From positions 54,440 through 118,439 of the forward strand of contig CAXRAI010000016.1 in NCBI GenBank assembly GCA_964228865.1: a stretch of 64,000 nucleotides of DNA, in the 5' to 3' direction. The notes beneath the pieces were generated by a model that saw nothing but the letters and a program-made list of their open reading frames with translations, ran no database searches and was not told where the DNA came from. Each line of letters begins with the position of its first letter. Within the stretch, counting starts at the first letter, position 1. The stretch is from Salinimicrobium sp. GTDB lineage: Archaea > Thermoplasmatota > Poseidoniia > Poseidoniales > Poseidoniaceae. This document shows positions 5,252 through 42,662 of this stretch, one piece after another. A program made the translations under genes and the position numbers.

Positions 5252-10123
<4,872 letters not shown>

Positions 10124-11928: not shown

Positions 11929-14900
11929 TCAGCGACGCCGCAACGGCCGGACGTAGCCGCTCGCTTCGTCCCTTCGTTCTTCCTTCCGCAGGATTCGAGG
12001 AGCAGGAGGTGCTCGGTGATCGTCGATACCTAGCATGCCATCGACCTCGACCCGCTCGACGTCCGCGTAGGCTTCTGCGTCCTTCGTGGCCGCTTCTTCG
12101 TCCTCAGTTGGCGCCCGCATCACCAGATAACCAAGCACCAAGGCCGCGATCACAAGTCCCAGGAAAAGGGCGGCATCGGCTCCAATGGAGCGCATCCAAG
12201 CGCTCCAATCTTCACGCGAAAATTCGGAAAGTGAAGGCGGGAGCGTGCTTTGGGGAGAGACGTCGATTTCGAGGTCCATGACCGCGCACTGATTCAGAGC
12301 ATCGCACGCCTCGATTCGAACGGTTCGACGACCGGCTTCGTCGTACACGGTCGCCACGCGATAGGTGTCCTCACGAACGGGTGCAACCCAGTCGTTGTCG
12401 GTCACGCCGTCACCGTCTGTGTCGACCTCAAGGTCGAGTTCCCACAAGGCTGCGATGCGTTGTTCAAGCAACACATCGCAATCCTCCATGGAGCCGTCGT
12501 TCACGTCCTCATCACGGCAGAGCGTTCCGTCTTTGTCCAGTTGTGCAAAGGTCACTTGCGCATCGATGATGGCATTGATGCCAGCGACGAACTCGTCAGG
12601 GATATCGATGAGCGTCACTTCTGGAGGCGCATCAATGACCACCGTAAACTGGGCCCGGGTCACGTCACCGGTCAGGTGCGCATCGCGGACGGTGAGGGTG
12701 ATCGTGTAGTTGCCCGGCTCAGCGTACGCGTGCCAAGGCGACGGCGTGTAGGACAAAGCCGAGCCGTCACCGAAATCCCAGACGTACTCCACCAGCCCGT
12801 TCCAGTCTTCAGAAGCTGGCTCCATTGGGACAAGCCTACCCTCGAAACGAGCATCGCCGTCACGCGTCCCGTCCGAATCGAAGTAAAGCAAGGTTCCCGG
12901 TGAAGCATGGACGGACCCGGCGTCGTCGAAGGTCCTCTTGAGGGTCACAACACCCACATCACCGTCGAACGGTGTGGTGACCTCGACAAGGCTGCCGTTC
13001 AACCACGCCTCGACGATGCGAACCTCGATGAGCGGCACGGGATTGATGACGTCGAAAGTTACGGTCCTCGGAGCGCTTTGGGCGCCGTCGGCGTCCGTGA
13101 CGACCAAGGTCACGCTCTGGATGCCGGGCGTGGCGAAGGTAAACCGGGGCTGAACCTCGGTTGAATTGCTACCGTCAGGGAAGGTCCAGTTGAAACTCAA
13201 GTCGTTTTGATCTCCGACCAACCCGTCCGGATCGGTGCTGTCTCGAGCGTTGAAGACGTAGGGAATATCGGGTTGGATGTCTGACGTCAAGAGGTCCAGC
13301 GTTTCGCTCGATGAGGCCTCACGAACGTTGAACGTCGCCGTAGGGCGTTGGTTTTCGACGATGACCTCCAACGTGGCCAACGATGTGCCGCCGTCATCGT
13401 CCACGACGGTGACCTCGACGGTGTAGGTGCCTGCACGCTCCCACGCCACGACCGGCTGTGCGCTGGTGGCCAAGACGGTGTTGAAATCGCTGGTGCGGTC
13501 CACGGTACCAGATCCGAGGTGGACACCGCCTGGGAAAGACCAGCTCCACGATTCAATGGTCCCGTCTTGGTCCTCAAACACAAGCGGCATCACCGTAGGC
13601 GTCTGGGTCACGGTCATGATGGGGCCGGCCTCAATCTGAACAGGAAGGCGGTTGTTGACCACGACGTCGACCGCCTTGGTGCCCATGTTGGCCCCGTCGG
13701 AAACGCTCAACACGAGCGTGAAGGTCTCGTTTTGTCCATCGATGTCGGTCCAAGCATGATTGGCACTGAACATGCCTGGGCCTTCGTCAACGGTACCGTC
13801 GCCCCAATCCCACGAATAGTTGAGGAAATTGGTCGGAACATTGTCCGTGGTCCGGCCTGCTGAAAACAGGATGCGCTGGTCCACCATGACGCTGATGGTA
13901 TCTCCAACGACCTGGTTGTTGATGGTGATGATCGGAATGGGGTCCGTGTTGTCGATGACCTCGATGGGCAACACGTCAACCTCGGACCACAGGCCCCCGA
14001 AATCCTTGACTTGGAGGGTCACGTTGTACAGGCCGATGGTTTCGTAACCTCGAACGGGGGACTTGAGCCCGCTTGTTTGGTTGTCGCCAAAGTCCCAGGC
14101 GTAGGCAACTGGCGGGTCGAGGTAGGGCAGCGTGTTGTTGACCAAGGAGAGGCCCCATGCGTCAAAACCGTCGCCGCTGAAAGCCACGTCATTCCAACTC
14201 AGGGTGAGGTTCGTCGAAACCGATCCGTTGGACACGGGGCGCATGTTGGCCACGGTCAGGGGTGCGCTGGTGGTCTCGTCGACGTTGTTTCCAAGCAGGT
14301 CACGCATGGTGAATTCGAAGGTGTACTGCCCGTCGGCGTTTGGCGTGAAGAACACCGACGTGCTCACGGGCTGACCACCGCCGGCCTCAACACGAGCGTC
14401 GAGGCGGTCCACGACGGCTCCCGTCCCGTCACGCACGGCGACATCGACGTCAAGGTCTTCGAAGAAGGCGTTTGAGAGCACGTCAAACTCGAGTTCCACC
14501 GTGTCGTCAAGGCCATCGCCATCGCGGTCTGAAGTGGTCACGTTTCCAGTGTCGATCGTCGCCGGAGCGGTGATTCGTGCCGCCTCAAGGTCGATGGTCC
14601 CCGTTGGGTAACTTGGACCGCAACTGGTGTAGTCGCAATCACCGATGCTGCTGGCCAGCCAAACGATCACCCACACCTCATCGGTGAGGTTTCCAAAGCC
14701 GGGAACAAGGGCCGTGGCCTGGGAGTTACTGAAGGTCAAATCGCTCACGGTGAGCAAGCCGTCCGAAGCAGCCTGCGTGACCACGACGCCGTCGAAGTCT
14801 GCACGATCTCCGGTCACGCGAAGGGTCAACGGCGCTGGAGAAGCGGAACCTGGTGTGAGCTTGAACGACCGGATGCCCCATCCTTCCATCGTGTGGCCCG

Positions 14901-16113
14901 TGGTGGTGTAGGGCGTGGACCAATCGCTGTTCGTGGCCGCAGGCTGAGCGCGGCAGAAGGTCCCGCCCGAACATGCGGGGTTCAATTGGAGGTTGGAATA
15001 GCCGTAGATGCCTTGGTCAGAATCCAACGTCGCGGCCACGGAGAAGTTGGCAAACACTTGGTCCATGGTGGTTCCAACAAGGCCTGCTTGCCCGTTTGCT
15101 GGCGCTGTTGCGAGGTTGGTGATGCCGCTTCCACCGGTGGCCCCATCTTGCACCAACTGCCGCATGGCTGGGCCGCCACCAAGGTGGTCCACGAGGTACA
15201 TCATGAGCATGAATCCCGCACCGTAGTCGGCGTTTCGTTGGTTCCACCAGCGCACGGAGAGGCCGCTGTTTTGCGTCCAACCGTTCACGTGTCCCGTGAG
15301 CGTGCTGTCCGCCCCGAAGCAGAGGTAAATCGCCACGTCAGCATTGCCTTCGTCGATGTAGAGGTTCTCGTATGGATCGAGAGCATTGTGCAACAGGTGC
15401 TGAAGCTCGTGCGCGATGATGGATCGACCCCACGTCAGGGTGACGTCAGCGTAGTCGACGAAGACCATCTCGCCCTGAGAAGCAAAACTCGGGGCGAAGT
15501 AACCGCCAATGTTGTACTGCCCATCGATGTCGTAGATGATCACCTCAACCTGGCAATTGTTGTCAACGTCGGGTGGAGCGATGCCCCGGCCGTCGCCGTA
15601 GTCCTTGCCGTAGTAGGTCGTCAACGTCGGGTAGATGGTTTGGTCCCAAGTGCTGGCCAGGTTTTGCAGGACCGTTGAACTGAGGGTGCGGCCGGTCTGG
15701 ACCAGGAAGGCGACGCTGCCCGTGGTTTTGGCCACCGTGACCGAAATCGAGCCGCCCGAGGTGGGCACGTTGAGGGTGTCGCCCTGAACGTGTTGGGTGC
15801 AGGCCCGCCCAGACGTCCCGGTGGCTTCGGTCAAGCCCGGGCGGTCGGCGTCCACCCACTGTTGGCGCAGGTAGGGTGTTGCGGACACCACGGGCTGGGA
15901 TTCGTCGATCAGCACGTACGGTCGTGCAAGGTCTTGCGTGAAACCGTCCAGCGAAGCCACATCGAGCAAATGGGCTGGAAGCGCGGCCATCTCCGTGGAA
16001 GTTGGAGATTCCTCCGCCGATGAGGCAGCGGCCAAACCGGTCAACGGCGCCATGACCATCAGTCCCACGAGGAGCAGTGAGGTGAGGGCGCGATTGGAGC
16101 GTGGTTCAGACAT
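11929..16113 (-). CDS. Giant (1394 aa) cell-surface protein combining an N-terminal HExxH zincin-like metallopeptidase domain, at least five PKD repeats and a C-terminal TM anchor with a charged cytoplasmic tail
   Basis: The signal peptide is MSEPRSNRALTSLLLVGLMVMAPLTGLAAASS. IIAHELQHLLHN...DEGNADV is an HExxH...E zincin signature. PKD motifs include AWDFGDN, YSWDWGDGT, YVWDFGDGS and LSFNWTFPDGS. The C-terminal helix is LFLGLVIAALVLGYLVM followed by an acidic/basic tail. Confidence 0.8.
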   Translation of the reverse strand: MSEPRSNRALTSLLLVGLMVMAPLTGLAAASSAEESPTSTEMAALPAHLLDVASLDGFTQDLARPYVLIDESQPVVSATPYLRQQWVDADRPGLTEATGTSGRACTQHVQGDTLNVPTSGGSISVTVAKTTGSVAFLVQTGRTLSSTVLQNLASTWDQTIYPTLTTYYGKDYGDGRGIAPPDVDNNCQVEVIIYDIDGQYNIGGYFAPSFASQGEMVFVDYADVTLTWGRSIIAHELQHLLHNALDPYENLYIDEGNADVAIYLCFGADSTLTGHVNGWTQNSGLSVRWWNQRNADYGAGFMLMMYLVDHLGGGPAMRQLVQDGATGGSGITNLATAPANGQAGLVGTTMDQVFANFSVAATLDSDQGIYGYSNLQLNPACSGGTFCRAQPAATNSDWSTPYTTTGHTMEGWGIRSFKLTPGSASPAPLTLRVTGDRADFDGVVVTQAASDGLLTVSDLTFSNSQATALVPGFGNLTDEVWVIVWLASSIGDCDYTSCGPSYPTGTIDLEAARITAPATIDTGNVTTSDRDGDGLDDTVELEFDVLSNAFFEDLDVDVAVRDGTGAVVDRLDARVEAGGGQPVSTSVFFTPNADGQYTFEFTMRDLLGNNVDETTSAPLTVANMRPVSNGSVSTNLTLSWNDVAFSGDGFDAWGLSLVNNTLPYLDPPVAYAWDFGDNQTSGLKSPVRGYETIGLYNVTLQVKDFGGLWSEVDVLPIEVIDNTDPIPIITINNQVVGDTISVMVDQRILFSAGRTTDNVPTNFLNYSWDWGDGTVDEGPGMFSANHAWTDIDGQNETFTLVLSVSDGANMGTKAVDVVVNNRLPVQIEAGPIMTVTQTPTVMPLVFEDQDGTIESWSWSFPGGVHLGSGTVDRTSDFNTVLATSAQPVVAWERAGTYTVEVTVVDDDGGTSLATLEVIVENQRPTATFNVREASSSETLDLLTSDIQPDIPYVFNARDSTDPDGLVGDQNDLSFNWTFPDGSNSTEVQPRFTFATPGIQSVTLVVTDADGAQSAPRTVTFDVINPVPLIEVRIVEAWLNGSLVEVTTPFDGDVGVVTLKRTFDDAGSVHASPGTLLYFDSDGTRDGDARFEGRLVPMEPASEDWNGLVEYVWDFGDGSALSYTPSPWHAYAEPGNYTITLTVRDAHLTGDVTRAQFTVVIDAPPEVTLIDIPDEFVAGINAIIDAQVTFAQLDKDGTLCRDEDVNDGSMEDCDVLLEQRIAALWELDLEVDTDGDGVTDNDWVAPVREDTYRVATVYDEAGRRTVRIEACDALNQCAVMDLEIDVSPQSTLPPSLSEFSREDWSAWMRSIGADAALFLGLVIAALVLGYLVMRAPTEDEEAATKDAEAYADVERVEVDGMLGIDDHRAPPAPRILRKEERRDEASGYVRPLRRR

Positions 16114-16170
16114 CTTCTCAACACCAAGAAACGCTTTACTGCGACTCCATTCTCACCTCGCGCCCCGGGG

Positions 16171-16177
16171 TATTTAA
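16171..16177 (+). promoter_or_regulatory. TATA-box candidate (TATTTAA) about 28 nt upstream of the M28 peptidase ATG, in the divergent region shared with the giant protease gene
   Basis: TATTTAA sits about -28 from the ATG at 16202, as expected for an archaeal leaderless or short-leader promoter. Confidence 0.35.
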
Positions 16178-16201
16178 CTGTGGGCTGACGACGCATCGCC
16201 G

Positions 16202-17410
16202 ATGCACCTTCGCGGACGCTTCGTGCTCATGTGCGCCCTCATGTTGATGACGCCGTGGGCCACTGCTCACGCAGAGGGTGAAACGGCGTCGCCTTATTGC
16301 TCGCTTTTGCCTGCACTGGAGGCCGACGGTGAGCGAGCCAATGCCTCCGTCGCCTGGCAGGTTGGTTTGGGTCCACGCCTTCCCGGTAGCGATGCCTCAG
16401 CAGCCCTGCTTGACGGTTTTGAGGAAAACCACAGCGCCTGGTCGTTCGAAAGGGACACCCACACCTACGCTGGAGGGACGTTGACCAACCTGGTGGCTGT
16501 CTTTCCTCCGAACACGGATTTGGCCACGACCGAAGCCTTCGGACTGGGCGCACATTACGACTCGAGGGCCGTGGCCGATGAGGAGGAGAACGCCACCAAT
16601 GCGACCCTCCCTGTCCCCGGTGCAAACGATGGAGGAAGTGGCGTGGCTGCCGTGGGTGAGTTGATGCGCATCATCCCTTCAATGGACCTTGACCACGCGG
16701 TGGTGGTGGTGCTCTTTGACGCCGAAGACCAAGGAACGTCCACGGATTGGGAGAGTTGGGCCGAGGGCAGCCGGCGATGGGCAGACAACCTCTCCAACGC
16801 GGAGGTGAGCAACCTCAAGGCATTCGTTTTGCTTGACATGATCGGTGATGCTCACCTGAACCTTGCCAACATCACGTCCAACCACCAAGGGCTCAACAAC
16901 GCCGTCGAACCTCTGGCCCAAGCCTTGGGCCTTATCCAAGGACGGGAGGCATGTTCCGGCGTTGAGGTGAAGGACGTTTACCAACCCGGAAACCTGCAGT
17001 ACATCTTCGACGATCACGTCCGCCTTCTGAACGTCGGCGTGCCTGCCATCGACATCATCGACCATCGTTTTGGGCCGAACGCGACCGGGTTCTCTAACAG
17101 CTATTGGCACACCCTTGAGGACACGCCCGACAAGGTCAGCGCCGGTTCCTTGCAGACGGTCATGCACCTGGTCGAATTGGGCCTCAGGTCAGGCGCTTGG
17201 ATGGAGGCGGTGGCCCCTGACAATCCAATCGAGGACGTCCCGGTTGTGGAGGACACCACCGGTCTTTCGCTCGCTGGGCCCCTTGGCTTGTTGGTGTTGG
17301 GGTGGGCCTTCGTGGTGGGCGTGGCAGGCGTCAGCATCATGGCGATCCTTGCACTTCGAAGGCTCAGGCCACCCCCCGCTGCCACGGCATGGTCGTGGGA
17401 TGAGGCATAG
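16202..17410 (+). CDS. M28-family zinc aminopeptidase, secreted with a C-terminal membrane anchor
   Basis: A signal peptide is present. The metal-ligand motifs GANDGGSG, LFDAEDQG and HTLEDTPD match the M28 family, and the C-terminal helix is LLVLGWAFVVGVAGVSIMAIL. Confidence 0.75.
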   Translation: MHLRGRFVLMCALMLMTPWATAHAEGETASPYCSLLPALEADGERANASVAWQVGLGPRLPGSDASAALLDGFEENHSAWSFERDTHTYAGGTLTNLVAVFPPNTDLATTEAFGLGAHYDSRAVADEEENATNATLPVPGANDGGSGVAAVGELMRIIPSMDLDHAVVVVLFDAEDQGTSTDWESWAEGSRRWADNLSNAEVSNLKAFVLLDMIGDAHLNLANITSNHQGLNNAVEPLAQALGLIQGREACSGVEVKDVYQPGNLQYIFDDHVRLLNVGVPAIDIIDHRFGPNATGFSNSYWHTLEDTPDKVSAGSLQTVMHLVELGLRSGAWMEAVAPDNPIEDVPVVEDTTGLSLAGPLGLLVLGWAFVVGVAGVSIMAILALRRLRPPPAATAWSWDEA

Positions 17411-17462: not shown

Positions 17463-18347
17463 GTGGACGCCATGGACCGGGAAGCAAGGCTGAGCGCGTT
17501 GCGCTCGCGCGTCCGCTCCACGCTCGACGGTGAGCAAAGCGATGAGCTCGTCATCGATTCCGTTGACACCTCTCTCGACGACCTCGGCAATGTTGAGCGG
17601 TTGAGCATCGAATCCATGTCGTGGGGCCAAGGCCTCGAACGCGAAGACAGTGAGCGCATTCGGCTCACGGCTGCAGTGTTGATCTTTGTTGGGAGCGTCC
17701 TCGGCATCATGTCCGGGTTGCTCCTTTTGCAAGGAAATCCGGTTGACCTTCTGGCCGCGGAACTCCTCGAGACCACCCCCACAGTGGACCTCCGCATGCA
17801 AGTGCTCGAGGCAGAAAGCGGCAACGCCCTCGAAGGTTTGACCGTCGAGTGGCTCGACTTGGACACAGAAACCGTGCTCCAGACGGCCATGACCGGGTCC
17901 TCTGGCTGGTTTGAGTTCGAAGGCGTGGTCACTGAACCACGCCTGCTGCGTGTCACCGGAGATGGCTACGTGACCTCCGAGATTGAAATGGTAGCCCAAG
18001 CCGCAGGCTCACCACCGGTCACCATGACCCCTGGAAGTGGCACAGAACGTTTGGTGATGACCACAGGCAACGAAGGCCAATGGTCCCTGGACGACGCAAC
18101 GCGCCTGTCCACCACAATCGGCATCGCGACCATCTTGACCGGTGCGGTGGGGTTGTTGGCCGGGCTCGAAGTGCGTCGAGCGAAGAAATACCGCAGGACA
18201 CAGTACCTTGCTGGCATCGGTTTGTTCAGCCGAGGGTTGATCCTGTTTGGACCCGCCCTCATCCTGCTTGGAATGGTCCTGCTGACGCTCACCAAAGGAC
18301 AGTTCCGTGATTGGGAGGGGGACAGCCATGTACCTGATTTCAGTTGA
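17463..18347 (+). CDS. Membrane protein with a CarboxypepD_reg-like beta-sandwich domain
   Basis: There are TM segments near residues 70-90 and 220-285. The central LEGLTVEWLDLDTETVLQTAMTGSSGWFEFEGVVTEPRLLRVTGDGYVTSEI matches a carboxypeptidase-regulatory-like fold. It is co-directional with the M28 peptidase, and its 3' end overlaps tmk by 20 nt. Confidence 0.5.
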   Translation: MDAMDREARLSALRSRVRSTLDGEQSDELVIDSVDTSLDDLGNVERLSIESMSWGQGLEREDSERIRLTAAVLIFVGSVLGIMSGLLLLQGNPVDLLAAELLETTPTVDLRMQVLEAESGNALEGLTVEWLDLDTETVLQTAMTGSSGWFEFEGVVTEPRLLRVTGDGYVTSEIEMVAQAAGSPPVTMTPGSGTERLVMTTGNEGQWSLDDATRLSTTIGIATILTGAVGLLAGLEVRRAKKYRRTQYLAGIGLFSRGLILFGPALILLGMVLLTLTKGQFRDWEGDSHVPDFS

Positions 18348-19659
18348 AGGGGGTGACGGCTCTGGCAAAGGCGAGGCCGTTCGCCTCCTGACCGAAATCC
18401 TCGCGAAGTACCCCTTTGCGGAGGTCTGTTCCACCCATGAGCCACGGCGCCATGCCGACGCCGGGCGGAGGGCCTTGGAGGCCGTTCAGCGCGGTGACAT
18501 GACTCCGGCGGAGGAAGCGGCGTTGTTCGCTGAAGACCGCCTTGACCACACCTCGAGTTGGATTTTGCCTCGCCTTCAGCGAAGCGCCGTCGTGGTTTCG
18601 GACAGAAACATCCACTCCTCCTTGGTCTACCAGGGCGTCGTGGGCGATCTTGGTTTGGACGAGGTCGCGGCACTGAACAAAGGAGCGGCCATCCCTGACC
18701 TCGTGGTGTGGATCGATTGCGACCCAGAACGCGCCATTCGCCGCATTCAGAGCGGCACGCTTCGCATGACCAGCGCAAAGCAGGAGTATTTCGAAACCTC
18801 TGAGATTCAAAAGAAAATTCGCGCTGGATTTGCCTCCTTGCTTTCTGGTGAAGTCAAGGCACCGGCTCCGTTCGACCGCTGCACCATCGCAGGACCCGTC
18901 CTCAACGAGGGCGGACTTGACGAGTTGGAAAAGGCCCTGCGCAAAACGGTCCGTGACTTCATGCGCACCCGCCCAGAACCCCAGAACGTCGACGGCGAAA
19001 CCGTGGACCGCCACGTCATTTCGAACCTTGTTGAAGGCATGAGCGCGCAACAACGCTTGCCCGGGATGCCCGTCAGCAGTGAGCCAGTGTTGCACGGCTG
19101 GCTCAACGGGGCCTCTCCGGCCACATGGATGGAACGGGCTGAGGCGGCTTGGCCAGAGCGCAGCGCCTTGGAGCACGATGTCCCTCGTCGGTTCACCGCC
19201 CTTTCGGTGTGGAGCGTGATCGGAACCTTGTCCCTGATGGACGGTACCTCAGACGTGCGTCGCTTGTACCACGCCCTTGGCCCGGTGCGTTTCGTCTCCC
19301 TCCGCCACGTCCGCAGGCTGGTCAAATGGCTCATTGGGGAAGACTGGATTTTCCGCCAACAGAACGAGGTGAAGTTCGCAGAAGGCCAGATGTTCCGATT
19401 GAGCGATGACCACCTCGCACAAGGGCGCCTTGCGTTGGCGCTTTGGCCCATGCGTGAGCGGTTGGAGGCGTGGCGAGAACAGCACCCAAAGGCCTCCTGG
19501 GCCACCGCGATGGCCCACGTCATCGAAGAAGCACCCGAGCAAGACGTCAACGATGTGATGGCACGGTTGAACCTGCTCTCCAGTGGCCATGTGGGATGCC
19601 CAACCCCAGAAGACGCGACCCAACTTGAGGGATGGTGGCGGTTGGACCCGCCCGCCTGA
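18328..19659 (+). CDS. tmk: Thymidylate kinase fused to a ~240-aa C-terminal domain of unknown function
   Basis: The N-terminus has MYLISVEGGDGSGKGE (P-loop), DRNIHSSLVYQG (the DRY/LID-region analogue) and WIDCDPERAIRRI. After about residue 210 the sequence has no recognisable family and is rich in W and R (LSVWSVIGTLSLMDG..., WPMRERLEAWREQHP). It forms a single in-frame ORF of 443 aa, whereas a typical Tmk is about 200 aa. Confidence 0.7.
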   Translation: MYLISVEGGDGSGKGEAVRLLTEILAKYPFAEVCSTHEPRRHADAGRRALEAVQRGDMTPAEEAALFAEDRLDHTSSWILPRLQRSAVVVSDRNIHSSLVYQGVVGDLGLDEVAALNKGAAIPDLVVWIDCDPERAIRRIQSGTLRMTSAKQEYFETSEIQKKIRAGFASLLSGEVKAPAPFDRCTIAGPVLNEGGLDELEKALRKTVRDFMRTRPEPQNVDGETVDRHVISNLVEGMSAQQRLPGMPVSSEPVLHGWLNGASPATWMERAEAAWPERSALEHDVPRRFTALSVWSVIGTLSLMDGTSDVRRLYHALGPVRFVSLRHVRRLVKWLIGEDWIFRQQNEVKFAEGQMFRLSDDHLAQGRLALALWPMRERLEAWREQHPKASWATAMAHVIEEAPEQDVNDVMARLNLLSSGHVGCPTPEDATQLEGWWRLDPPA

Positions 19660-27886: not shown

Positions 27887-28993
27887 ATGGACCTCGACCG
27901 TCATGATTTCCAACTCGAGGAGTTGATGACGCGCATCAAAGACGGTGACCACCGTCTCATCGCCTTGCAGGTGCCCGAAGGGCTCAAGATGCAAGCGCTG
28001 GAAATGATGGACGCCATCGAAACCGACACCAGCGCAAAAGTGGTGCTGGCCGCCGACCCTTGCTACGGGGCATGCGACCTGGTGCACGACAAGATGCGGA
28101 TGATGGGCGTGGAACTTGTGGCGCACATGGGCCACTCGCAGATGAACATCGACTCAGGCATGCCCACCCAATTCATCGACGTGACCTACGAGGGCGACCC
28201 TGAACTTCAGCCCGTTCTGCCGATCCTTCATGCCCACCGTGAGGGCGCCAAGAAGCGCCTTGAGGGGGCCAGCGATGTCCCCCTCACCGAGGAAGAAGCA
28301 CAGGAGCGCTTCCTCGATGCCGTTGGGCGAACAGCGGCCTTGACCGATGTGAAACTCGGCTTGGTGGGCTCCATCCAGCACCTGCACCTCCTCCCCGCCT
28401 TTTGCGAGCGCCTCGAAGAGGCGGGATTCGACGTCACCGTGCCGCTGGGCGGTGCTCGACTGACCTTCCCCGGACAGGTGCTTGGCTGCAACTATTCGGG
28501 CGATGACGACAACATCGGCCACTACCTCTTCCTCGGAAGCGGAGACTTCCATCCGATTGGTTTGGTCCTCCACACCGGCAAGCCCCTTGCCATGCTCGAC
28601 CCGTACACCGGCGAAGCCACCGAAATGTCGCTCCAGCGCATCGAGCGCATCCTGCGGCAACGCTTCGGGCTGATCATGGCCTGCCAGGACGCAGAACGCT
28701 ACGGCATCCTCATCGGCGAAAAGCCCGGCCAGATGCGCCGAACCCTTGCCCTTCGCATGAAGCGCATGCTCGAGCGCCACGGAAAGAAGGGATACTTGCT
28801 CGCCCTCGAACACGTCGGCCCAGAACTCATCGACTTCTATCCGGTCGACGCCTTCGTGAACACGGCTTGCCCCCGCATCGCCATCGATGATGCGGTGAAG
28901 TACGCCAAGCCCCTGATCACGCCGTTCGAGCTTGAGGTGACCCTTGGCGAGAAGGACTGGGGCGAAGGTTACCGCTTCGACGAAATCCCCTGA
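27887..28993 (+). CDS. dph2: Diphthamide biosynthesis enzyme Dph2 (2-(3-amino-3-carboxypropyl)histidine synthase)
   Basis: This archaeal Dph2-like protein of about 368 aa has the conserved Cys-containing blocks CYGACD and NTACPRIA. Confidence 0.8.
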   Translation: MDLDRHDFQLEELMTRIKDGDHRLIALQVPEGLKMQALEMMDAIETDTSAKVVLAADPCYGACDLVHDKMRMMGVELVAHMGHSQMNIDSGMPTQFIDVTYEGDPELQPVLPILHAHREGAKKRLEGASDVPLTEEEAQERFLDAVGRTAALTDVKLGLVGSIQHLHLLPAFCERLEEAGFDVTVPLGGARLTFPGQVLGCNYSGDDDNIGHYLFLGSGDFHPIGLVLHTGKPLAMLDPYTGEATEMSLQRIERILRQRFGLIMACQDAERYGILIGEKPGQMRRTLALRMKRMLERHGKKGYLLALEHVGPELIDFYPVDAFVNTACPRIAIDDAVKYAKPLITPFELEVTLGEKDWGEGYRFDEIP

Positions 28994-29003
28994 TTTGGGG
29001 AGC

Positions 29004-30221
29004 ATGTTCAAGAACGGCTGTCGTCGTTGTTGCTACGTTATGGTCGACTACCTCGATGCCATCGGAGCGGGCCTCATCCTGCTCGACCCGACCCCCCTCG
29101 GGTTTGACTACCTCCCCACGGAGTTGGTGGCCCGGGATGAGTTACAACGCGCCCTTGCAGGCCGCTTTTCCAGCCTTGGCCACGCCAGCGGCTCTGGACG
29201 TGCGGTCATCACCGGGCCGGTCGGGAGCGGGAAGACCAGCCTCGTCCGGCGTTTCTGTGACGACGTCGCCCGTCACCTCATCGGCACGCGTGACATCGCC
29301 GTGGCCCACATCAACTGCCGAAACGAAAACACGACCATGCAGGTGATGCACAAAATCGTCGCACAGATGGACGAGCGCCATCCTGACCGCGGGTTGTCCA
29401 GCGGTGAGTTGCTGGCAAGCATCCGCCGCCTGGTGTCCGCCCGACGCGGGCACCTGATCGTGGTGCTCGACGAGGTGGACCACCTGCTGCGACGAGCGGG
29501 CAACGACATCCTCTACCACTTGCTGCGCATTGACGAGGATGCCGCGTCGGAAGGCACGCTCTCGCTCATCCTCATCAGCCAAGAGCAGATCCTCGACGTG
29601 TTGGAGGGCGCGGTCATTTCGCGGCTCGGGGCGTCCAACCACCTCCGAATCCCCGCGTACAAGCGAGAGGAACTGTCGGCCATCGCCCAACAACGGGCCG
29701 CATTGGCCCTTCGCCCCGGCTCATGGCAAGCCACCCACATCGACCTGATCGCGGAAGCGGCCGCCACCAACGGTGACGCTCGGGCGGCCATCGAGTTGCT
29801 CGATACCGCCGTGCGCAACGCAGAAGCCGACGGACGACGTGAACTGCGTGCCGACGACATCCAGCGGGCGGCGACCGAACTGCCAAGCACCCATGCTGAC
29901 GGCCTGATCGACGACCTGAACCTGCATCAGTTGCTGGTGCTCTTGGCCGTTGCACGGCGCCTGCGGCGCGCCGACCACATCACCAGCGGAGACATCGACC
30001 AACTGTATGCTGTCGTGTGCGAGGAACACGAGGCTGAAGCACGCAGCCACACCACGATCTGGAAGATCGTGAAAGAGCTCGAAGCACAAGGCCTGATTGC
30101 GACACGTGTGGCGCCTGTCGGCTCCGGCCGAGGGCGGACCACGCACGTGACCATGCCAACGGTATTGCCGGCAGACCTCATCCCAAGGATCGAAGATGCC
30201 GTGCCAAGACGGCGGCGCTGA
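29004..30221 (+). CDS. orc1: Orc1/Cdc6 replication initiator (AAA+ with C-terminal winged helix)
   Basis: LLDPTPLGFDYLPTELVARDELQRALAG is the family N-terminal block and ITGPVGSGKTSLV is Walker A. Walker B is IVVLDEVDHL, and a C-terminal wHTH follows. The start was trimmed to an internal ATG after the Dph2 stop. Confidence 0.85.
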   Translation: MFKNGCRRCCYVMVDYLDAIGAGLILLDPTPLGFDYLPTELVARDELQRALAGRFSSLGHASGSGRAVITGPVGSGKTSLVRRFCDDVARHLIGTRDIAVAHINCRNENTTMQVMHKIVAQMDERHPDRGLSSGELLASIRRLVSARRGHLIVVLDEVDHLLRRAGNDILYHLLRIDEDAASEGTLSLILISQEQILDVLEGAVISRLGASNHLRIPAYKREELSAIAQQRAALALRPGSWQATHIDLIAEAAATNGDARAAIELLDTAVRNAEADGRRELRADDIQRAATELPSTHADGLIDDLNLHQLLVLLAVARRLRRADHITSGDIDQLYAVVCEEHEAEARSHTTIWKIVKELEAQGLIATRVAPVGSGRGRTTHVTMPTVLPADLIPRIEDAVPRRRR

Positions 30222-30815: not shown

Positions 30816-32054
30816 ATGGCACGTCGACTCCCGCGCCAACCTGAGGTCAACATCGGACTTGTTGGTCACGTTGACCACGGCAAGACCACGCTGACCCAAG
30901 CGTTGTCCGGCGTCTGGACGGACACCCATTCCGAGGAACGCAAGCGCGGCATTTCCATCAAGCTCGGATACGCGGACACGGCCTTCTACCAAACCGAAGA
31001 CGGTGCACACTACCCGCTCGGCCGCCGTCCTGACGGCAACAAGGACGTGGACGAAGAACTCCAGCGCGTGGTTTCCTTCGTGGACGCGCCTGGTCACGAG
31101 ACGCTGATGGCGATCATGATCACCGGTGCATCCCTGATGGACGGCGCCCTCCTGATGGTGGCCGCCAACGAGCCATGCCCACAGCCCCAGACCCGGGAGC
31201 ACCTCATGGCCCTCGAAATCGCAGGCATTGAGAACATCGTGGTCGTTCAAAACAAGATCGACCTCGTTTCGCGCGAACGCGCAATGGAATCCCATGCTGA
31301 GATCAAGGCCTTCCTCAAGGGCACCATCGCTGAGCACGCGCCAATCATCCCGGTCTCGGCCCACCATGACGTCAACCTCGACGTGTTGATTTCAGCCATT
31401 GAAGCCTACATTCCCACTCCGGACCGTTCCGAAGATGTGCGCAGCGTCATGCACGTCGCCCGTTCCTTCGACATCAACCGACCCGGCACCCGCCCCGGCA
31501 AAATGCGTGGAGGTGTCATTGGGGGAAGCATCGTGGAAGGAACCTTCTCGGTGGGCGACGAAGTCGAAATCGCTCCAGGCCGCCGAACCGGTGAAGGCAA
31601 CAAAGCCGTGTGGGAACCCATTCAAGCCACCATCAGCAGCATCCAAGGTGGCGGCTTGAACCTCGACACCGCCCATGCTGGGGGCTTGGTCGGCATCGCC
31701 ACGAAACTCGATCCTGCGACCACCACCGCCGACAACCTCAGCGGACAAGTCATCGCCCTCCGGGGCGAACTTCCTGAGATCCGCGAAACCATTCGCGTCG
31801 ATGTGGACCTGATGGCCACCATGGTGGCCGGTGACGGAGAGGCACCTGAGCCCATCCATCGTCTTCGCAACAACGAGATGCTGATGGTCAACGTGGCCAC
31901 GGCCACCTCGGTTGGCGTGGTGAAAAACGTCGAGAAGAACCAAGCCACGCTTCAACTCCGCCTTCCCATCTGTGCGGATGCCGGTCAACGTGTTTCCATT
32001 TCGCGACGAACCGGTTCCCGATGGCGCCTCATCGGCCATGCCACAATCGTGTGA
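30816..32054 (+). CDS. eif2g: Translation initiation factor aIF2 gamma subunit
   Basis: NIGLVGHVDHGKTTL is the G1 motif, DAPGHE the G3 motif and NKID the G4 motif, followed by the zinc-knuckle region. The start was trimmed to MARRLPRQPEVNIG. Confidence 0.9.
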   Translation: MARRLPRQPEVNIGLVGHVDHGKTTLTQALSGVWTDTHSEERKRGISIKLGYADTAFYQTEDGAHYPLGRRPDGNKDVDEELQRVVSFVDAPGHETLMAIMITGASLMDGALLMVAANEPCPQPQTREHLMALEIAGIENIVVVQNKIDLVSRERAMESHAEIKAFLKGTIAEHAPIIPVSAHHDVNLDVLISAIEAYIPTPDRSEDVRSVMHVARSFDINRPGTRPGKMRGGVIGGSIVEGTFSVGDEVEIAPGRRTGEGNKAVWEPIQATISSIQGGGLNLDTAHAGGLVGIATKLDPATTTADNLSGQVIALRGELPEIRETIRVDVDLMATMVAGDGEAPEPIHRLRNNEMLMVNVATATSVGVVKNVEKNQATLQLRLPICADAGQRVSISRRTGSRWRLIGHATIV

Positions 32055-32063
32055 GGCGGGAAC

Positions 32064-32429
32064 GTGGAGCTGATCATCGACGCCTGCGGTTGGGCCGCAG
32101 CGGTCGACGCCAGCGTCAACCTTGACCATGCGTTGATGCCCTTGGTCGGTCGACCCACGTGGTTGGTTCCCGTTGGCGTGCGGGAGGAACTCGGGGTCCT
32201 TGACCAACAACGGCGTGGACTTTTGCTCGCCTTGCTGGACGAGCGTGCCACGCTTGTGGAGCCTGAGCAGCTCGAGGTGCATCCCGATGACCACATCGTG
32301 GCCTTGGCCACCGCTCGACAAGCGGCCACCCTGACCGTGGATCGTGCCCTCAAAGGGCGGTTGATTCAGGCAGGTTGCCCCGTCATCGAAGTGGTTGACG
32401 GCCACCGACTTCGTCGGATTGACCCCTAA
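32064..32429 (+). CDS. PIN-domain protein (GTG start) in the conserved position downstream of aIF2-gamma
   Basis: LIIDACGWAAAVD carries the N-terminal PIN Asp, and the protein is about 120 aa. Archaeal eif2g is often followed by a Nob1-like PIN gene. Confidence 0.5.
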   Translation: MELIIDACGWAAAVDASVNLDHALMPLVGRPTWLVPVGVREELGVLDQQRRGLLLALLDERATLVEPEQLEVHPDDHIVALATARQAATLTVDRALKGRLIQAGCPVIEVVDGHRLRRIDP

Positions 32430-32773
32430 GGAAGGGTGAACAGAACGTCGTCGTCGTGGCCGTCCAACAGACGCAGGCGAACGCCCGCATCGATCCATGC
32501 ATGAGCGTAGTTGATCGCTCCGAAGGCCCGAACAAGGTCACCGGTGGTCAGGAAGTGTGCTGCATCTGAGGCGTAATCGTCGGCCATTCGAAGCAAGCGC
32601 TGAAGATCATCCCACGCTGGTGTCCCCTCCTCAGGAAGTGGTGTGGCTTTCGCTCGAGCCTTGGCGGTCAAATCCAGATAACGCTGGACCCGCTCAGGTG
32701 TCACTTCCGTTGGGTGGTCGCCCTCAGTCATCAGCCAGCCCTCCTCGTCGACGTACGCGCTCAACATCGTCAT
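32426..32773 (-). CDS. DUF357 (COG1849)-like small archaeal protein
   Basis: The C-terminal block DAAHFLTTGDLVRAFGAINYAHAWIDAGVRLRLLDG matches the DUF357 YAHGWLDAG motif. The start was trimmed to the internal ATG MTMLSAY. It overlaps the upstream beta-propeller gene by about 50 nt. Confidence 0.45.
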   Translation of the reverse strand: MTMLSAYVDEEGWLMTEGDHPTEVTPERVQRYLDLTAKARAKATPLPEEGTPAWDDLQRLLRMADDYASDAAHFLTTGDLVRAFGAINYAHAWIDAGVRLRLLDGHDDDVLFTLP

Positions 32774-33767
32774 CGCGTCCAAGCGCTTCGTAGTGCAGAG
32801 CTGCCGTGGACCAATCAGCACGCTCCTCGGCTTCGACCGCCGCCTCGAAGCGACGGCGGCGTTGCGCCCAATCGGCGGCGCGTCGACCGTCGGCGACCAA
32901 AGCACGACGGGCCTCGCGTTCGATGCGCTCACGTTCACCGCCATACCAACAACGGACCAATCCATCGCGGGTGGCCCCGAACAAGGTCTCTGCACCGTCC
33001 CCGTCAAGCAACAACACAGGGTCGCTCATCATCGCACCCTCATGCACCAATCCCCCGTCCGATGCACTCATGATTCGGCCATCAAGCTCGAGCAGCACCC
33101 ACCCTGTGGCCGTCCTGACGGCGGACGTGGGCTCGAGCACGTCGCTTTCGACGCGTTCGATGCGGTCCCAACCCGAAGCGCCGGGTACGCCCCTGTGCAG
33201 CATACCGTCTGGACCTCGCATGAGCATCCCATCACGGTCCAACGAAGAGACCCACGTCCAGCGTTCCTCTCCATAGGCCGCAAGGTCTTCTCCGCTGCCA
33301 ACGTGAACCAAGCGCAGCACGCCGTCATGGTCGTGAACGATGGCTTGATCCCGGTCCAGCCACCCGATCAAGGCACGGACAGGTGCACGCGAAACACGTG
33401 AGCGCCCTCGCCCCTCTTTCGTGAAGAGATGAAGGTCGCCCTCACGGCCCGAGGCGAGCCAGCCTCCACCAGGCCGTGCCACCAGAGCGGAGAAGCCACG
33501 GCTGACCGCACGCCCCTCGTTGACCGGTGTACCGTCGTCAAACCGGTGCACGGTGAAACCATGTGCGGCAAGGACACCGACATGAGCACCGGCCACGACG
33601 ACACGGTGGGGCGTGAACAGCAGGTCGTGGGTCCAGCGGTGCGCGCCGTCATCAGCCATCAGCGTCAATCGGCGCTCATGGCCAAGCATGCACCACCCTG
33701 AGCCGGCCACCAGCGAGGCCACTGGGCCCGTGATTTTGCTTGACCATGCTGGAGTCCATGCCATCAA
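32724..33767 (-). CDS. Beta-propeller-like (PQQ/WD40-type repeat) hypothetical protein with a C-terminal helical region
   Basis: Irregular repeats rich in G, D, W and H (DDGAHRW, GREGDLHLF, DHDGVLRLVHVG, DRDGMLMRG, LDGDGAETLF) are followed by an Arg/Glu/Ala-rich helical tail. Its start overlaps the upstream ATPase stop by 4 nt. Confidence 0.4.
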   Translation of the reverse strand: MMAWTPAWSSKITGPVASLVAGSGWCMLGHERRLTLMADDGAHRWTHDLLFTPHRVVVAGAHVGVLAAHGFTVHRFDDGTPVNEGRAVSRGFSALVARPGGGWLASGREGDLHLFTKEGRGRSRVSRAPVRALIGWLDRDQAIVHDHDGVLRLVHVGSGEDLAAYGEERWTWVSSLDRDGMLMRGPDGMLHRGVPGASGWDRIERVESDVLEPTSAVRTATGWVLLELDGRIMSASDGGLVHEGAMMSDPVLLLDGDGAETLFGATRDGLVRCWYGGERERIEREARRALVADGRRAADWAQRRRRFEAAVEAEERADWSTAALHYEALGRDDDVERVRRRGGLADD

Positions 33768-35440: not shown

Positions 35441-35494
35441 GCTCGGCGCCAACAAAAACCGGGTATATCATGCTTCACCGGATGAAGGCCGCCC

Positions 35495-36948: not shown

Positions 36949-37551
36949 TCACTCATCTTCGCCTACAGGCAGCACAGCTTGGACCGTCCCGTCCACCTGC
37001 TCCTCCTCCACGACCACGCTGCCCAGGACATCGTCGAGAATGCCTGATTCCGCCACTTGCTCGCGGAACCATGCTCGAACCTTCGACCGGTCGGTGTGCG
37101 GGCAACCAAAGACCTCTGAGAACCGACGCGTGGTCGAAAGACGTCGCGTGTTCCCGTCCCTTCGACGCTGAATCATGCCGGCTTGAGCAAGTTCGCGCAC
37201 GTGGTCGTAGGCCCGCTGACCAAGCATGTCGACCAAACGCGATTGAGGCATGGGCTGGTGGTACGCGATAAGGGAGGCTGCCTTGAGCAAACGAGGAGGA
37301 AGGTCCGTCTTGGTTTCACGTGGAAGATGTGCGGCCACCTTCGGCTTGACTTCCATGGCCCAGCGGCCGCCAACCTCAGCAAGGTGCAGGGCCCCTCTGC
37401 GGCGCTTCAACGCCCCTTGGAGCTGTTCCAAAGCCGCACTGACCTCATCGGCTTCGTACCCCAAGGTTTCCGCGAGTTCCTTCACCGAAAGGGATCGACC
37501 GGCGGCGAACAATTGAGCCTCAAGCAGGAGTTCCAGGGGCGTCTCCGTCAT
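36949..37551 (-). CDS. scpB: Segregation and condensation protein B
   Basis: LEAQLFAAGRSLSVKELAE is the N-terminal wHTH followed by a second wHTH, giving about 200 aa. The gene lies directly downstream of scpA. Confidence 0.85.
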   Translation of the reverse strand: MTETPLELLLEAQLFAAGRSLSVKELAETLGYEADEVSAALEQLQGALKRRRGALHLAEVGGRWAMEVKPKVAAHLPRETKTDLPPRLLKAASLIAYHQPMPQSRLVDMLGQRAYDHVRELAQAGMIQRRRDGNTRRLSTTRRFSEVFGCPHTDRSKVRAWFREQVAESGILDDVLGSVVVEEEQVDGTVQAVLPVGEDE

Positions 37552-41600: not shown

Positions 41601-42546
41601 TTTCGATGGCCACGTTCAGCCGTTGAATCTCCTGTTGGAGGGCTTCGCCGCCGCCCCCAAGTTTGTCCTGGATCTGCTTGACCAGTTCAGCGATGGCATC
41701 GTCAAGGCGGATCAATTGCTTGGCGGCTTGAGCGACGTCTGCCTCAAGCGCGCTGGCTTCCTCGATGTTGCGAGCAACCTCACGGCGTTGATGTTCGATG
41801 GTGCCTTCCTGACCGGCAAGGCGAGCCCGCCAAAGCCTGGCGCGGGCGGTCAAAAGGTCCTCCCGGATCTTGAGGGCCTTCTCAGCATCCTTCTTTTCCT
41901 CAACAAGGTCGGCGAGGTGCCGTTGTTGCTCTTGTTCGATCATCGCGATGCGTTCGAGGTATTCCTCCACCTGCTTCCGTTGACGGTCCGCCTTGCGAAT
42001 TTCCTCGTCGTAGGACGTCACGCCAGCGACATCGTCGAGCACCTTTCGTCGCTCACCTGAACTCATCTTTGAGAGGCTGGTCACGTCACCTTGGAGCACG
42101 ATGTTGTAACCGTCAGGTCGGGCATTGGCCGCTCCGAGAAGACGGTGGAAGGCCTTGAGCGAGGATTCCTCCCCGTTCAGGTGGTATTCGGTCACGACGT
42201 TTCCGGCAGGCGTCAAACGAACGCGCTTCGACATGGTGATTTCGTCCAAATCGAGGGGGAGGCGGCGAAGGCCCCCTTCCATCGCAGGATTCGCAAAGAC
42301 CAGCGTGACGGCACATCCCTTTGCTGGACGGCTGTTTTTACCACCGTTGAAGATCAAGTCCTTGGAATTCTGAGCCCGCAAGGTCTTGGCCGATTTGGGA
42401 CCAAGAACGAATTGAATGGCATCTCCGCTGTTCGATTTTCCGGAGCCGTTTGGGCCTGTGATGGCCGTGAATCCACGTCCAAAGGGAATGCGAACTTCCC
42501 CCTTGAACGACTTGAAATCAACCATCACGAGTTCCTTGAGGTACAT
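38689..42546 (-). CDS. smc: Chromosome segregation protein SMC
   Basis: [29 protein letters not shown] is Walker A. Long coiled coils and a hinge follow, and the C-terminus has [32 protein letters not shown] (signature and Walker B). The start was trimmed to MYLKEL, which has a GGAGGG SD upstream. Confidence 0.95.
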   Translation of the reverse strand: [1285 protein letters not shown]

Positions 42547-42662
42547 CCCATCCCTCCGGTCCAAATTGGACCTCAGGCCCGTCATCGCGAACGAGGGAAC
42601 TTAAACACTCCGAGAATGAGGCACCGCGAGGCCATCGTTCAGGAATGGAGGGCGCTTCGCCG

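Follow-up and report, generated by a model that had tools for sequence, protein, structure and literature searches.

The gene analysed here lies within a 64,000-nucleotide stretch of DNA (hereafter, the window) as part of a three-gene block on the forward strand. The first gene of this putative operon encodes an M28 peptidase (16202–17410, +; PF04389, 100.3 bits) and is followed by a gene for a membrane protein with a CarboxypepD_reg domain (17463–18347, +; PF13620, 36.5 bits). Next, at 18328–19659 (+), comes a single uninterrupted open reading frame (ORF) of 443 codons ending in TGA, which encodes a thymidylate kinase (Tmk) joined to a C-terminal extension containing a winged helix (wH); the whole is referred to below as Tmk-wH. 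The longest version of the ORF begins with GTG at 18307, and ATG at 18328 is the supported start because all orthologue N termini align from M/V-YLI..EGGDGSGKG. An earlier reading of the sequence alone (the sequence-only reading) had reported a 20-nt overlap between the start of the gene and the upstream membrane-protein ORF, as is indeed the case, and had called the M28-peptidase operon an odd context for a housekeeping kinase. That context is real and conserved: among 81 orthologous loci fetched from Poseidoniales species genomes, the membrane-protein gene adjoins Tmk-wH in 79 and the M28 gene lies upstream in 76, with a glutaminyl cyclase in its place in one locus (L084). Adjacency of the membrane-protein gene and the start/stop overlap hold even in relatives with ~30% identity in the C-terminal domain.

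Upstream of the block, the only strongly conserved promoter-like element is the TATA-box-like sequence GGTATTTAA (16169–16177, +), positioned ~25 nt before the M28 start. Of 74 distinct intergenic sequences, 73 contain it, and the one that does not (L059) was extracted in truncated form. Further upstream, at a constant spacing from this box, is a conserved block (16124–16149) with dyad symmetry in several clades, which is a candidate operator or 5′-UTR hairpin unlinked to the Tmk-wH protein. A weight-matrix scan of the window for further copies of the dyad stayed at chance level (10 matches, versus 4–12 in shuffled sequences), and no co-variation of the dyad with the recognition helix of the extension was found; for both reasons, the dyad is not claimed as a Tmk-wH site. 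No convincing origin-like repeats were found near orc1/cdc6.

Residues 1–215 (18328–18972, +) make up the kinase. The N-terminal half scores 98.5 bits against PF02223 (cut-off 27) and 100.5 bits against TIGR00041 (cut-off 83.25), and it matches the Staphylococcus aureus Tmk in sequence at 3e-14. Its predicted structure has the Tmk fold: Foldseek matches the solved enzymes of S. aureus, T. maritima, E. coli, and human with an E-value of 7e-9 and TM scores of 0.79–0.85 (normalised to the target) over ~218 columns. The dTMP- and ATP-binding positions (the P-loop Lys and Asp, D-R, S-S..Y-Q, the stacking Phe, and the lid Arg) align with those of S. aureus Tmk, and in all 84 orthologues the P-loop G-x-D-G-x-G-K, EPRR, F67, D70-R71, R93, S97-S98, Y101-Q102, and lid arginines R139 and R146 are invariant. 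The lid region (18742–18795, +) also contains invariant K151 and E153-Y-F-E156; pLDDT is low at residues 147–150, as is typical of a mobile lid. Residues 1–215 thus align as a complete Tmk domain that is probably active.

One feature of the catalytic site departs from the usual pattern. In Tmks, a Ser or Thr after the P-loop Lys usually coordinates Mg2+, and stand-alone Tmks carry GKST, GKTT, GKGT, or GKGS at this position. In the P-loop GGDGSGKG (residues 8–15; 18349–18372, +), the Lys is followed by Gly, and none of the 84 orthologues has a G-K-[ST] loop: Gly is found in all 84 at +1, Glu in 79 of 84 at +2, and no conserved Ser/Thr occurs at +2 across the set. Kinase activity of Tmk-wH is not guaranteed, because its P-loop has no Ser/Thr after the Lys, and the same substitution could be taken to mean that the Tmk half is a non-catalytic nucleotide sensor, the protein a purely dTMP- or ATP-responsive regulator, and a separate canonical Tmk, encoded elsewhere in the genome, the enzyme for the housekeeping reaction; other regulators do have related enzyme-derived sensor domains. 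Such a pseudokinase nevertheless appears improbable given that every dTMP- and ATP-contacting position is invariant, including the D/E-R pair and the lid arginines, and that the kinase half evolves at a dN/dS of 0.02–0.05. A G-K-G-[TS] P-loop is, moreover, found in P0145 and P0146, two stand-alone proteins annotated as dTMP kinase, and the G-K-G loop is therefore treated as a variant rather than as grounds for exclusion from the Tmks; GKG P-loops are also found in adenylate kinases. A second Tmk is absent from the 64-kb window, and no second Tmk family labelled Poseidoniales appears in the homologue list, which is not exhaustive. We consider it likely that the kinase is catalytically active and serves as the housekeeping Tmk of the lineage.

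The claim that this kinase is fused in frame to an uncharacterised, W/R-rich C-terminal part agrees with the ORF, with the family matches, and with the orthologues; the motifs quoted for it are all found in the translation, and the C-terminal part contains 11 Trp and 22 Arg in 231 aa. The proposed domain sizes needed adjustment: helix 197–214 is the last Tmk helix, so the Tmk fold reaches residue ~215 and the extension measures ~228 aa rather than ~240.

Could the fusion be an artefact, two genes having been joined through a frameshift or an error of assembly? A few database entries hold one half only (P0003, P0017, and P0060) and one, P0052, is chimeric, which is what such an error might look like. 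The three half-genes that were checked are, however, themselves artefacts, explained by a contig edge, a scaffold gap of 10 N, and a terminal 1-nt frameshift, and P0052 (Tmk–ThiF) appears to be a one-off chimeric junction, as judged by sequence alone. The identical fusion occurs in a continuous frame in 79 of the 81 loci, from independent assemblies, and the remaining two are cut by contig ends; the fusion proteins across these loci are 442–456 aa long. Purifying selection spans the domain junction (dN/dS 0.02–0.05 in the Tmk half and 0.03–0.08 in the extension), and AF2 returns one rigid two-domain protein. The joining of two genes by error, which the sequence-only reading had named as something to exclude, is ruled out by the 79 independent genomes and the purifying selection, and has next to no probability. 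A genome scan further revealed that at least 104 species genomes retain the extension as conserved coding sequence, a lower bound since the peptide patterns used favour Poseidoniaceae. An exhaustive phmmer search of 1.84 billion proteins yielded 33 representative matches to the extension, and in every match long enough to judge it stands behind a Tmk; neither this search nor a profile search found a stand-alone or otherwise fused copy. These comparisons across genomes show the fusion to be genuine, ancient within the Poseidoniales, and under strong purifying selection.

The sequence-only reading had also allowed that the C-terminal region might be a known, common Tmk extension in this lineage. 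It occurs throughout the order Poseidoniales, but it is neither known nor annotated: database entries label fragments of the C-terminal half "hypothetical protein" and call the N-terminal half "dTMP kinase", and no paper describing the extension was found.

Searches of Pfam and NCBIfam with the extension (231–238 aa) gave no match. Modelled alone by AF2, it is predicted with a pLDDT of 87.3 and a pTM of 0.85 and has an H-beta-H-H-beta-beta topology; the full-length protein, modelled from an alignment of 41 database proteins, reaches a pLDDT of 89.5 and a pTM of 0.87. The latter value suggests that the arrangement of the two domains is fixed, with the extension packing rigidly on the kinase. 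The models show the extension as a single folded domain in which a helical bundle is built around a winged-helix core. Its first part (residues 216–290; 18973–19197, +) comprises a conserved P-x-P-x-N-V...V-D, a long helix, a loop, and two short helices, and the loop, of low confidence, bears a conserved Q..L-P-G. The predicted core follows at residues 292–358 (19201–19401, +), mostly with a pLDDT >90, and has the order H-(beta)-H-H-beta-beta (H292–303, E308, H310–317, H325–337, E341–344, and E355–358), that is, a winged-helix topology with a beta-hairpin wing. Within it, the putative recognition helix LRHVRRLVKWLIG (residues 325–337; 19300–19338, +) comes after an invariant G-P-x-R turn: G318, P319, R321, and R326 are invariant or nearly so and H327 is conserved in at least 90% of sequences. 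The predicted wing (residues 341–358; 19348–19401, +) shows the conserved pattern W-I-x-[RK]-Q-Q ... F-[KR]-L. The C-terminal bundle (residues 360–438; 19405–19641, +) consists of five predicted helices at a pLDDT of about 95 and ends in a conserved E-L-x-x-W-W motif. The winged-helix segment has a pI of 9.8–12.0 in all orthologues, and the flanking segments are on average acidic to neutral.

Nearly all of the best 50 Foldseek matches of the extension are MarR or other winged helix–turn–helix (wHTH) DNA-binding proteins, with probabilities of up to 1.0. These matches are weak (best E 8.8e-3, none at 1e-3, TM 0.25–0.65), and superposition on wHTH structures is confined to a core of ~80 residues. 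Below-threshold Pfam matches are likewise mostly to wHTH families (MarR, HTH_Crp_2, and MarR_2), and none of the wHTH Pfam models scores above its cut-off. As the matches are weak, the winged helix is a fold assignment rather than a family membership. In profile searches of PDB sequences, the only matches were alphaRep/HEAT repeat proteins, with designed alphaRep proteins reaching summed E-values as low as 3e-13, which might be read as a sign that the segment R-H-x-x-R-L-V-K-W-L...W-I-x-R is a HEAT/alphaRep-like helical repeat and not a winged helix. That identity was rejected and is very improbable: the score sums over eight repeats of the target, in which a segment of ~21 residues is matched eight times, while the single stretches are insignificant (i-E 26–800) and the segment is present in a single copy in the query. 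AF2, furthermore, predicts a helix and a beta-hairpin at this segment with a pLDDT >90, and the fold search returns wHTH proteins and not HEAT repeats.

Taken at the level of domain content, the presence of a genuine, conserved Tmk with a novel winged-helix-containing domain is close to certain. Throughout the Poseidoniales, dTMP kinase is made as one protein with a basic winged-helix module that had not been described before.

Several functions for such a module can be weighed. The sequence-only reading had raised nucleotide modification and anti-phage defence, and neither gained support. The extension showed no catalytic fold and had no above-threshold match in PADLOC or PHROGs, and the gene sits in conserved core-genome synteny (76–79 of 81 loci) and not in a variable island. 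The Tmk half has one weak, generic PADLOC match (PDC-M51B, 24.8 bits), and a search of a viral structure library returned no significant match. A regulatory role, the third suggestion, is a reasonable reading of the models, since the extension holds a predicted basic winged-helix core.

Protein contact offers another explanation, in which the enzyme is an ordinary housekeeping Tmk and the extension a protein–protein or oligomerisation module that does not bind nucleic acid. Winged-helix folds widely serve protein contacts, and possible partners include the putatively co-transcribed CarboxypepD_reg membrane protein, whose adjacency and overlap are conserved at ~30% identity, as well as replication proteins, which might be contacted via the E-L-x-x-W-W C terminus or the Q..L-P-G loop. 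The latter is set in a loop modelled with low confidence, which is typical of short linear motifs, and the former resembles a PIP box minus its Gln; the window scan and the co-variation analysis, for their part, found no operator. Against these points, the winged-helix core is uniformly basic (pI 9.8–12) while the rest of the protein is acidic to neutral, and conserved residues gather around the HTH turn and the first residues of the recognition helix. In addition, the E-L-x-x-W-W helix is predicted with high confidence inside the bundle and not as a free tail, and the membrane protein appears, from its composition, to be largely extracytoplasmic or membrane-embedded. A role in protein contact alone is thus judged unlikely, albeit still the weightiest of the alternatives.

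The reading preferred here is that Tmk-wH is a Poseidoniales dTMP kinase with a fused nucleic-acid-binding winged-helix module, possibly an enzyme–regulator of the BirA/RbkR kind, to which we assign a probability of roughly 0.55. Nucleic-acid binding by the modelled core is, by itself, slightly favoured; a role as a sequence-specific transcription regulator is more tentative, with the odds somewhat against it. Tmks are homodimers, and the fusion would therefore present two winged-helix units, which would enable nucleic-acid binding, most likely to double-stranded DNA. Occupancy of the kinase by nucleotides (dTMP and ATP versus the products) could then modulate winged-helix binding, as in BirA, NadR, and archaeal RbkR, and the thymidylate pool would be coupled to transcription or some DNA-associated process. 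The complete dual function, in which the protein both makes dTDP and uses the dimer-presented winged helices to bind specific DNA sites in a manner dependent on dTMP, dTDP, and ATP, is a rather unlikely version of this scheme. The fusion nonetheless suggests that Poseidoniales may tie the synthesis of DNA precursors to DNA binding or to gene control.

The archaea of Marine Group II (MGII; Poseidoniales) rank with the most abundant in the plankton, and none has been brought into culture; their physiology is therefore known mainly from gene-level inference. The basic winged-helix module fused to Tmk represents a new domain family, for which there is neither a Pfam/NCBIfam model nor a solved structure, and a domain model would mend the automated "hypothetical protein" annotation; the fusion itself is a lineage marker. 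Known regulators of deoxynucleotide metabolism, such as NrdR, work differently, and DNA binding by the module would make it a new case of enzyme–regulator coupling within this metabolism. Were the dual function true, an MGII protein sensor would directly link the thymidylate pool to transcription or replication-associated DNA and would, as far as found, be the first transcription factor based on a thymidylate kinase. The protein is small and soluble-looking and is predicted with high confidence.

Stand-alone Tmks (S. aureus, T. maritima, and E. coli) resemble residues 1–215 of Tmk-wH in both sequence and fold, sharing the P-loop, D-R, the S-S-x-x-Y-Q-G motif, and the lid arginines. They differ in the P-loop, which reads G-K-G-E in Tmk-wH and G-K-[ST]-[ST] in the stand-alone enzymes, and in that no solved Tmk has the folded C-terminal module of ~228 aa. 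This module is matched best in fold by members of the MarR family (PF01047), among them 7krh, 3cdh, 1ku9, and 4gxo (probability 0.9–1.0), in which the order of helices around the winged helix is similar. The Tmk extension has extra N- and C-terminal helices, however, and is fused to an enzyme; global superposition on a MarR protomer is poor (rmsd 9–16 Å; TM 0.25–0.47, and 0.34–0.47 when taken to the targets), the winged-helix core alone matching. Weak Pfam MarR matches were obtained for 1 of 15 and 3 of 16 members (best E 0.0022–0.0075, below the cut-off), no member reaches the PF01047 gathering cut-off, and the window protein has no match. The likeness to MarR is one of shared fold, not of family membership.

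At the fold level, the AF2 models place an enzyme and a putative DNA-binding domain in one polypeptide, an arrangement with precedents. NadR also has a P-loop kinase, combining an HTH with an NMN adenylyltransferase and a P-loop ribosylnicotinamide kinase. Both NadR and BirA (a biotin ligase and repressor) are fusions of enzyme and DNA-binding domain in which occupancy by ligand or product controls DNA binding (PMC5397151). They involve other enzymes, carry the DNA-binding domain at the N terminus, and have no detectable homology to Tmk-wH; the likeness is one of functional analogy only. RbkR is an archaeal bifunctional riboflavin kinase and wHTH transcription regulator, the wHTH of which is nearest to MarR/SlyA; its kinase domain also acts as the sensor of the effector, with ligands modulating DNA binding (PMC5397151). 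No sequence similarity between RbkR and Tmk-wH was detected, and the kinase folds are unrelated, that of RbkR being a cradle-loop barrel that uses CTP and that of Tmk-wH a P-loop NMP kinase. The wHTH of RbkR is N-terminal, whereas the predicted winged helix of Tmk-wH lies on the C-terminal side, within a larger bundle, and operators and regulons have been defined for RbkR, while the window scan and the co-variation analysis defined none for Tmk-wH. Both proteins nevertheless combine an archaeal small-molecule kinase with a MarR-like winged helix, and RbkR thus provides the best analogy for how Tmk-wH might work.

The gene at 18328–19659 (plus strand), designated Tmk-wH, translates without interruption into 443 residues before a TGA stop, and every motif quoted in the sequence-only reading—which had claimed an in-frame fusion of a thymidylate kinase (Tmk) to an uncharacterised W/R-rich domain—is found in this translation. 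The longest open reading frame (ORF) starts at GTG 18307; ATG 18328 is the supported start, because all orthologues align from M/V-Y-L-I-x-V-E-G-G-D-G-S-G-K-G. From the ORF coordinates, the gene overlaps the upstream ORF (17463–18347) by 20 nt, as had been reported. The N-terminal half is a Tmk family member whose P-loop departs from the usual form: it scores 98.5 bits against PF02223 (cut-off 27) and 100.5 bits against the TIGR00041 equivalog (cut-off 83.25), is matched by Staphylococcus aureus Tmk (E = 3e-14), and in its modelled fold reaches a TM of 0.85 at best against solved Tmks, all in agreement with the kinase assignment already made. The C-terminal extension is as unfamiliar as claimed, albeit shorter (around 228 aa, not 240), since the final Tmk helix of the AlphaFold2 model ends at about residue 214.

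Conservation and charge were assessed in 84 non-identical orthologues. Kinase positions G8, D10, G11, G13, K14, E38-P39-R40, F67, D70-R71, H74, R93, S97-S98, Y101-Q102, R139, R146, and E153-Y-F-E156 are invariant in all 84, a pattern that argues for a working active site. The P-loop is the sole deviation, with Gly after the Lys in 84/84 orthologues and then Glu in 79. Among stand-alone Tmks, those closest in sequence carry G-K-S-T, G-K-T-T, G-K-G-T, or G-K-G-S, whereas Tmk-wH mostly has G-K-G-E. This P-loop, lacking Ser/Thr after the Lys, is the best argument for regarding the Tmk half as a sensor-only pseudokinase, but the invariant positions speak against that reading, which we consider improbable. 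The P-loop of adenylate kinases is normally G-K-G, and thus the change need not abolish catalysis. Tmk-wH is probably the housekeeping dTMP kinase of the Poseidoniales (Marine Group II archaea); no second Tmk is encoded within the 64-kb window.

Searching with the extension alone recovered 10 relatives among 5.8 billion clustered proteins, and HMMER, run exhaustively on 1.84 billion representative sequences, gave only 33 matches. In every match long enough to judge (379–455 aa), the domain lies at around residues 200–450, after a Tmk N terminus, and no stand-alone or otherwise fused copy occurs in the databases searched. When one genome was scanned for each GTDB species, a relative turned up at 104 loci, and 80 of these were retained. 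Essentially all bear the labels Poseidoniales, Poseidoniaceae, or Poseidonia, or older labels of the same MAGs; one is labelled Thalassarchaeaceae. In 79 of 81 loci, one reading frame carries both M-Y-L-I-x-V-E-G-G-D-G-S-G-K-G and the extension (proteins of 442–456 aa); contig ends cut the gene in the other two. Three database proteins considered as separate half-genes were rejected: P0017 is explained by a contig edge, P0003 by a 10-N scaffold gap, and P0060 by a 1-nt frameshift located 25 nt from the end of its contig. Nei–Gojobori dN/dS against nine close relatives (dS approximately 1–2.7) is 0.02–0.05 for the kinase, 0.03–0.08 for the extension, and 0.01–0.065 for the winged-helix segment. 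Together, the in-frame loci, the HMMER matches, the traced half-genes, and the low dN/dS exclude a frameshift or assembly artefact, to which we assign a negligible probability. The fusion is robust, and it is widespread across the phylogeny of an uncultured group that is ecologically dominant. The sequence-only reading had allowed for a known, common Tmk extension in this lineage: common it is, but not described, with fragments named 'hypothetical protein' or 'dTMP kinase, partial' and no published description found in full-text literature searches.

In P0009, from a 2.07-Mb nanopore/pilon contig (kelso_4__contig_13935_pilon, ENA; locus L001, 10001–12400), the frame of the extension is locally disrupted by errors, and the correct residues recur in another frame; around 1.1 kb of low-GC, stop-rich sequence, which could be an assembly error or an insertion, separates Tmk-wH from the DUF2085 gene there. 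P0052 (NCBI/ENA, 90.8-kb contig; 340 aa) shares 95% identity with the window protein's Tmk domain as far as ...GGLDELEK, after which it becomes ThiF-family (PF00899) sequence; either chimeric assembly or a rearrangement in that one genome is the probable cause.

The extension has no match in Pfam, NCBIfam, PADLOC, or PHROGs. AlphaFold2 models it alone (15-sequence alignment) with mean pLDDT 87.3 and pTM 0.85, and full-length Tmk-wH (41 sequences) with pLDDT 89.5 and pTM 0.87, low confidence being limited to the kinase lid (147–150) and one loop at around 241–262. The high two-domain pTM suggests that kinase and extension are held in a fixed mutual arrangement. In the model, a long helix (223–239), a loop with a conserved Q..L-P-G, and two short helices lead into a core of helix 292–303, a short strand, helices 310–317 and 325–337, and a β-hairpin (341–344 and 355–358), followed by five further helices, the last with a conserved E-L-x-x-W-W. 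The H-β-H-H-β-β unit is winged-helix topology. Nearly all of the top 50 Foldseek matches in the PDB are winged-helix DNA-binding proteins, of the MarR family or others (7krh, 3cdh, Methanocaldococcus jannaschii 1ku9, SarZ, ST1710, STIV F93, MecI, PadR, and PerR among them), with probabilities mostly 0.8–1.0, TM 0.25–0.65, and a best E of 8.8e-3, so that none reached 1e-3. Named BFVD matches are mostly HTH/wHTH and local (approximately 70–90 residues, rmsd 2.5–3.7 Å), and sub-threshold Pfam matches of family members are mostly wHTH (MarR in 1/15 and 3/16, best E 0.0022; also MarR_2, HTH_Crp_2, and SgrR_N). A winged-helix fold is supported by these model-based comparisons; membership of MarR or another curated family is not, and the extension, which has a winged helix at its core, defines a new domain family. 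An alphaRep-like identity from a PDB sequence profile search was rejected, its score, to designed alphaRep proteins, summing eight matches (i-E 26–800) of one 21-residue segment that are each meaningless on their own.

The winged-helix segment (291–360) is basic across the orthologues, with a mean pI of 10.6 (range 9.8–12.0) against 6.35 for the kinase and 6.2 and 7.6 for the extension flanks; in the window's protein it is 10.2 against 5.5, 5.5, and 5.0 elsewhere. Within the extension, invariant or nearly invariant positions are found in G299-T-L-S-L, in the turn L-G318-P319-x-R321, and in R326-H327, at the N-terminal end of the third helix; the turn and this end of the helix are where wHTH proteins touch DNA. 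Charge and residue pattern thus favour nucleic-acid binding, to which we give a probability of roughly 0.55; that Tmk-wH is a sequence-specific transcriptional regulator is a more tentative proposal, with the odds somewhat against it.

Gene order is kept in 75–79 of 81 loci: a giant PKD-repeat gene (minus strand), an M28 peptidase gene, a CarboxypepD_reg membrane-protein gene (17463–18347, plus strand) whose stop overlaps or abuts the Tmk-wH start, Tmk-wH itself, and a DUF2085 gene (minus strand). The order persists in relatives with around 30% extension identity and is identical in L083; in L084 (120–2094), from a divergent lineage, a glutaminyl cyclase (PF05096) replaces the M28 peptidase. 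Surface peptidase or cyclase genes are thereby conservedly paired with a cytoplasmic nucleotide kinase. The PKD-repeat protein (11929–16113, minus strand; 1394 aa, many PKD-type repeats, secreted or anchored) is 52%–95% identical across loci, occupies this position in every case, and diverges from the M28 operon across an 88-bp intergenic region (16114–16201) that is homologous in L001–L081. Near-invariant GGTATTTAA (16169–16177) is presumably the TATA box of the three-gene block, and its spacing of some 25 nt from the M28 ATG downstream points to a transcript with a short leader or none. Further upstream, at a constant distance from this box, lies a conserved block (16124–16149) that in several clades forms a dyad (GAATC-N8-GATTC, GAAAC-N8-GTTTC, GCTTT-TTAC-AAAGC, and GGTGGTTAACCCACC), the arms differing by clade as GAATC/GATTC, GAAAC/GTTTC, GCTTT/AAAGC, and GGTGG/CCACC. 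This dyad cannot be assigned as an operator of Tmk-wH: its weight matrix finds 10 sites at score ≥10 in the window against 4–12 in shuffles, no excess over chance, with the window's own site scoring only 10.9, and arms do not co-vary with the recognition helix. Clades with different arms have the same R-H-T-Q-R-L helix, and the window's clade has R-H-V-R-R-L yet the same C-G-C-N3-A-C-T-G-C core. The block is real and might be a transcription-factor site or a 5′-leader hairpin of the PKD gene.

The genes for gyrB/gyrA (5252–10118, minus strand), an Orc1/Cdc6 homologue (28944–30221, plus strand; AAA plus a Cdc6_C winged helix), and ScpB (36949–37551, minus strand) all lie within around 20 kb, placing Tmk-wH in a replication-flavoured region, and gyrB also adjoins the L001 locus; beside orc1/cdc6, neither a cluster of origin-like repeats nor an AT-rich gap is seen. 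A 563-aa ORF (33764–35455, minus strand) has AAA_16/AAA_22 matches only, at a STAND/Orc-like ATPase N terminus, the rest of it being unassigned; its neighbours (31392–32498 and 32724–33767, both minus strand) have no Pfam match, and neither has an 851-aa ORF (45994–48549, minus strand) at E 1e-4 or better. The window also holds a 1298-aa ORF (38689–42585, minus strand). The main rival to nucleic-acid binding gives the extension a protein-interaction or scaffolding role, with the presumably co-transcribed membrane protein as a possible partner, or else the replisome, for which E-L-x-x-W-W at the C terminus or the Q..LPG loop would be the contact; set beside the basic core, we hold this to be rather unlikely.

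Tmk-wH thus pairs a complete Tmk with a folded module, predicted to be rigidly attached, whose winged-helix core is basic, and the pairing is conserved throughout an archaeal order. It is at once a Tmk bearing an accessory domain peculiar to its lineage and an enzyme–winged-helix fusion, readily testable, whose function is so far inferred. No solved structure covering both halves was matched. Tmks are homodimers, and two winged helices would therefore be shown together, the usual geometry for dyad-symmetric DNA. If nucleic acid is bound, the kinase, on taking up nucleotide and closing its lid, could alter DNA binding via a rigid interface, by analogy with archaeal RbkR, in which ligands of the kinase domain alter DNA binding and the wHTH is closest to MarR/SlyA (PMC5397151). 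RbkR, BirA, and NadR resemble Tmk-wH in logic only, differing in enzyme fold, domain order, and sequence.
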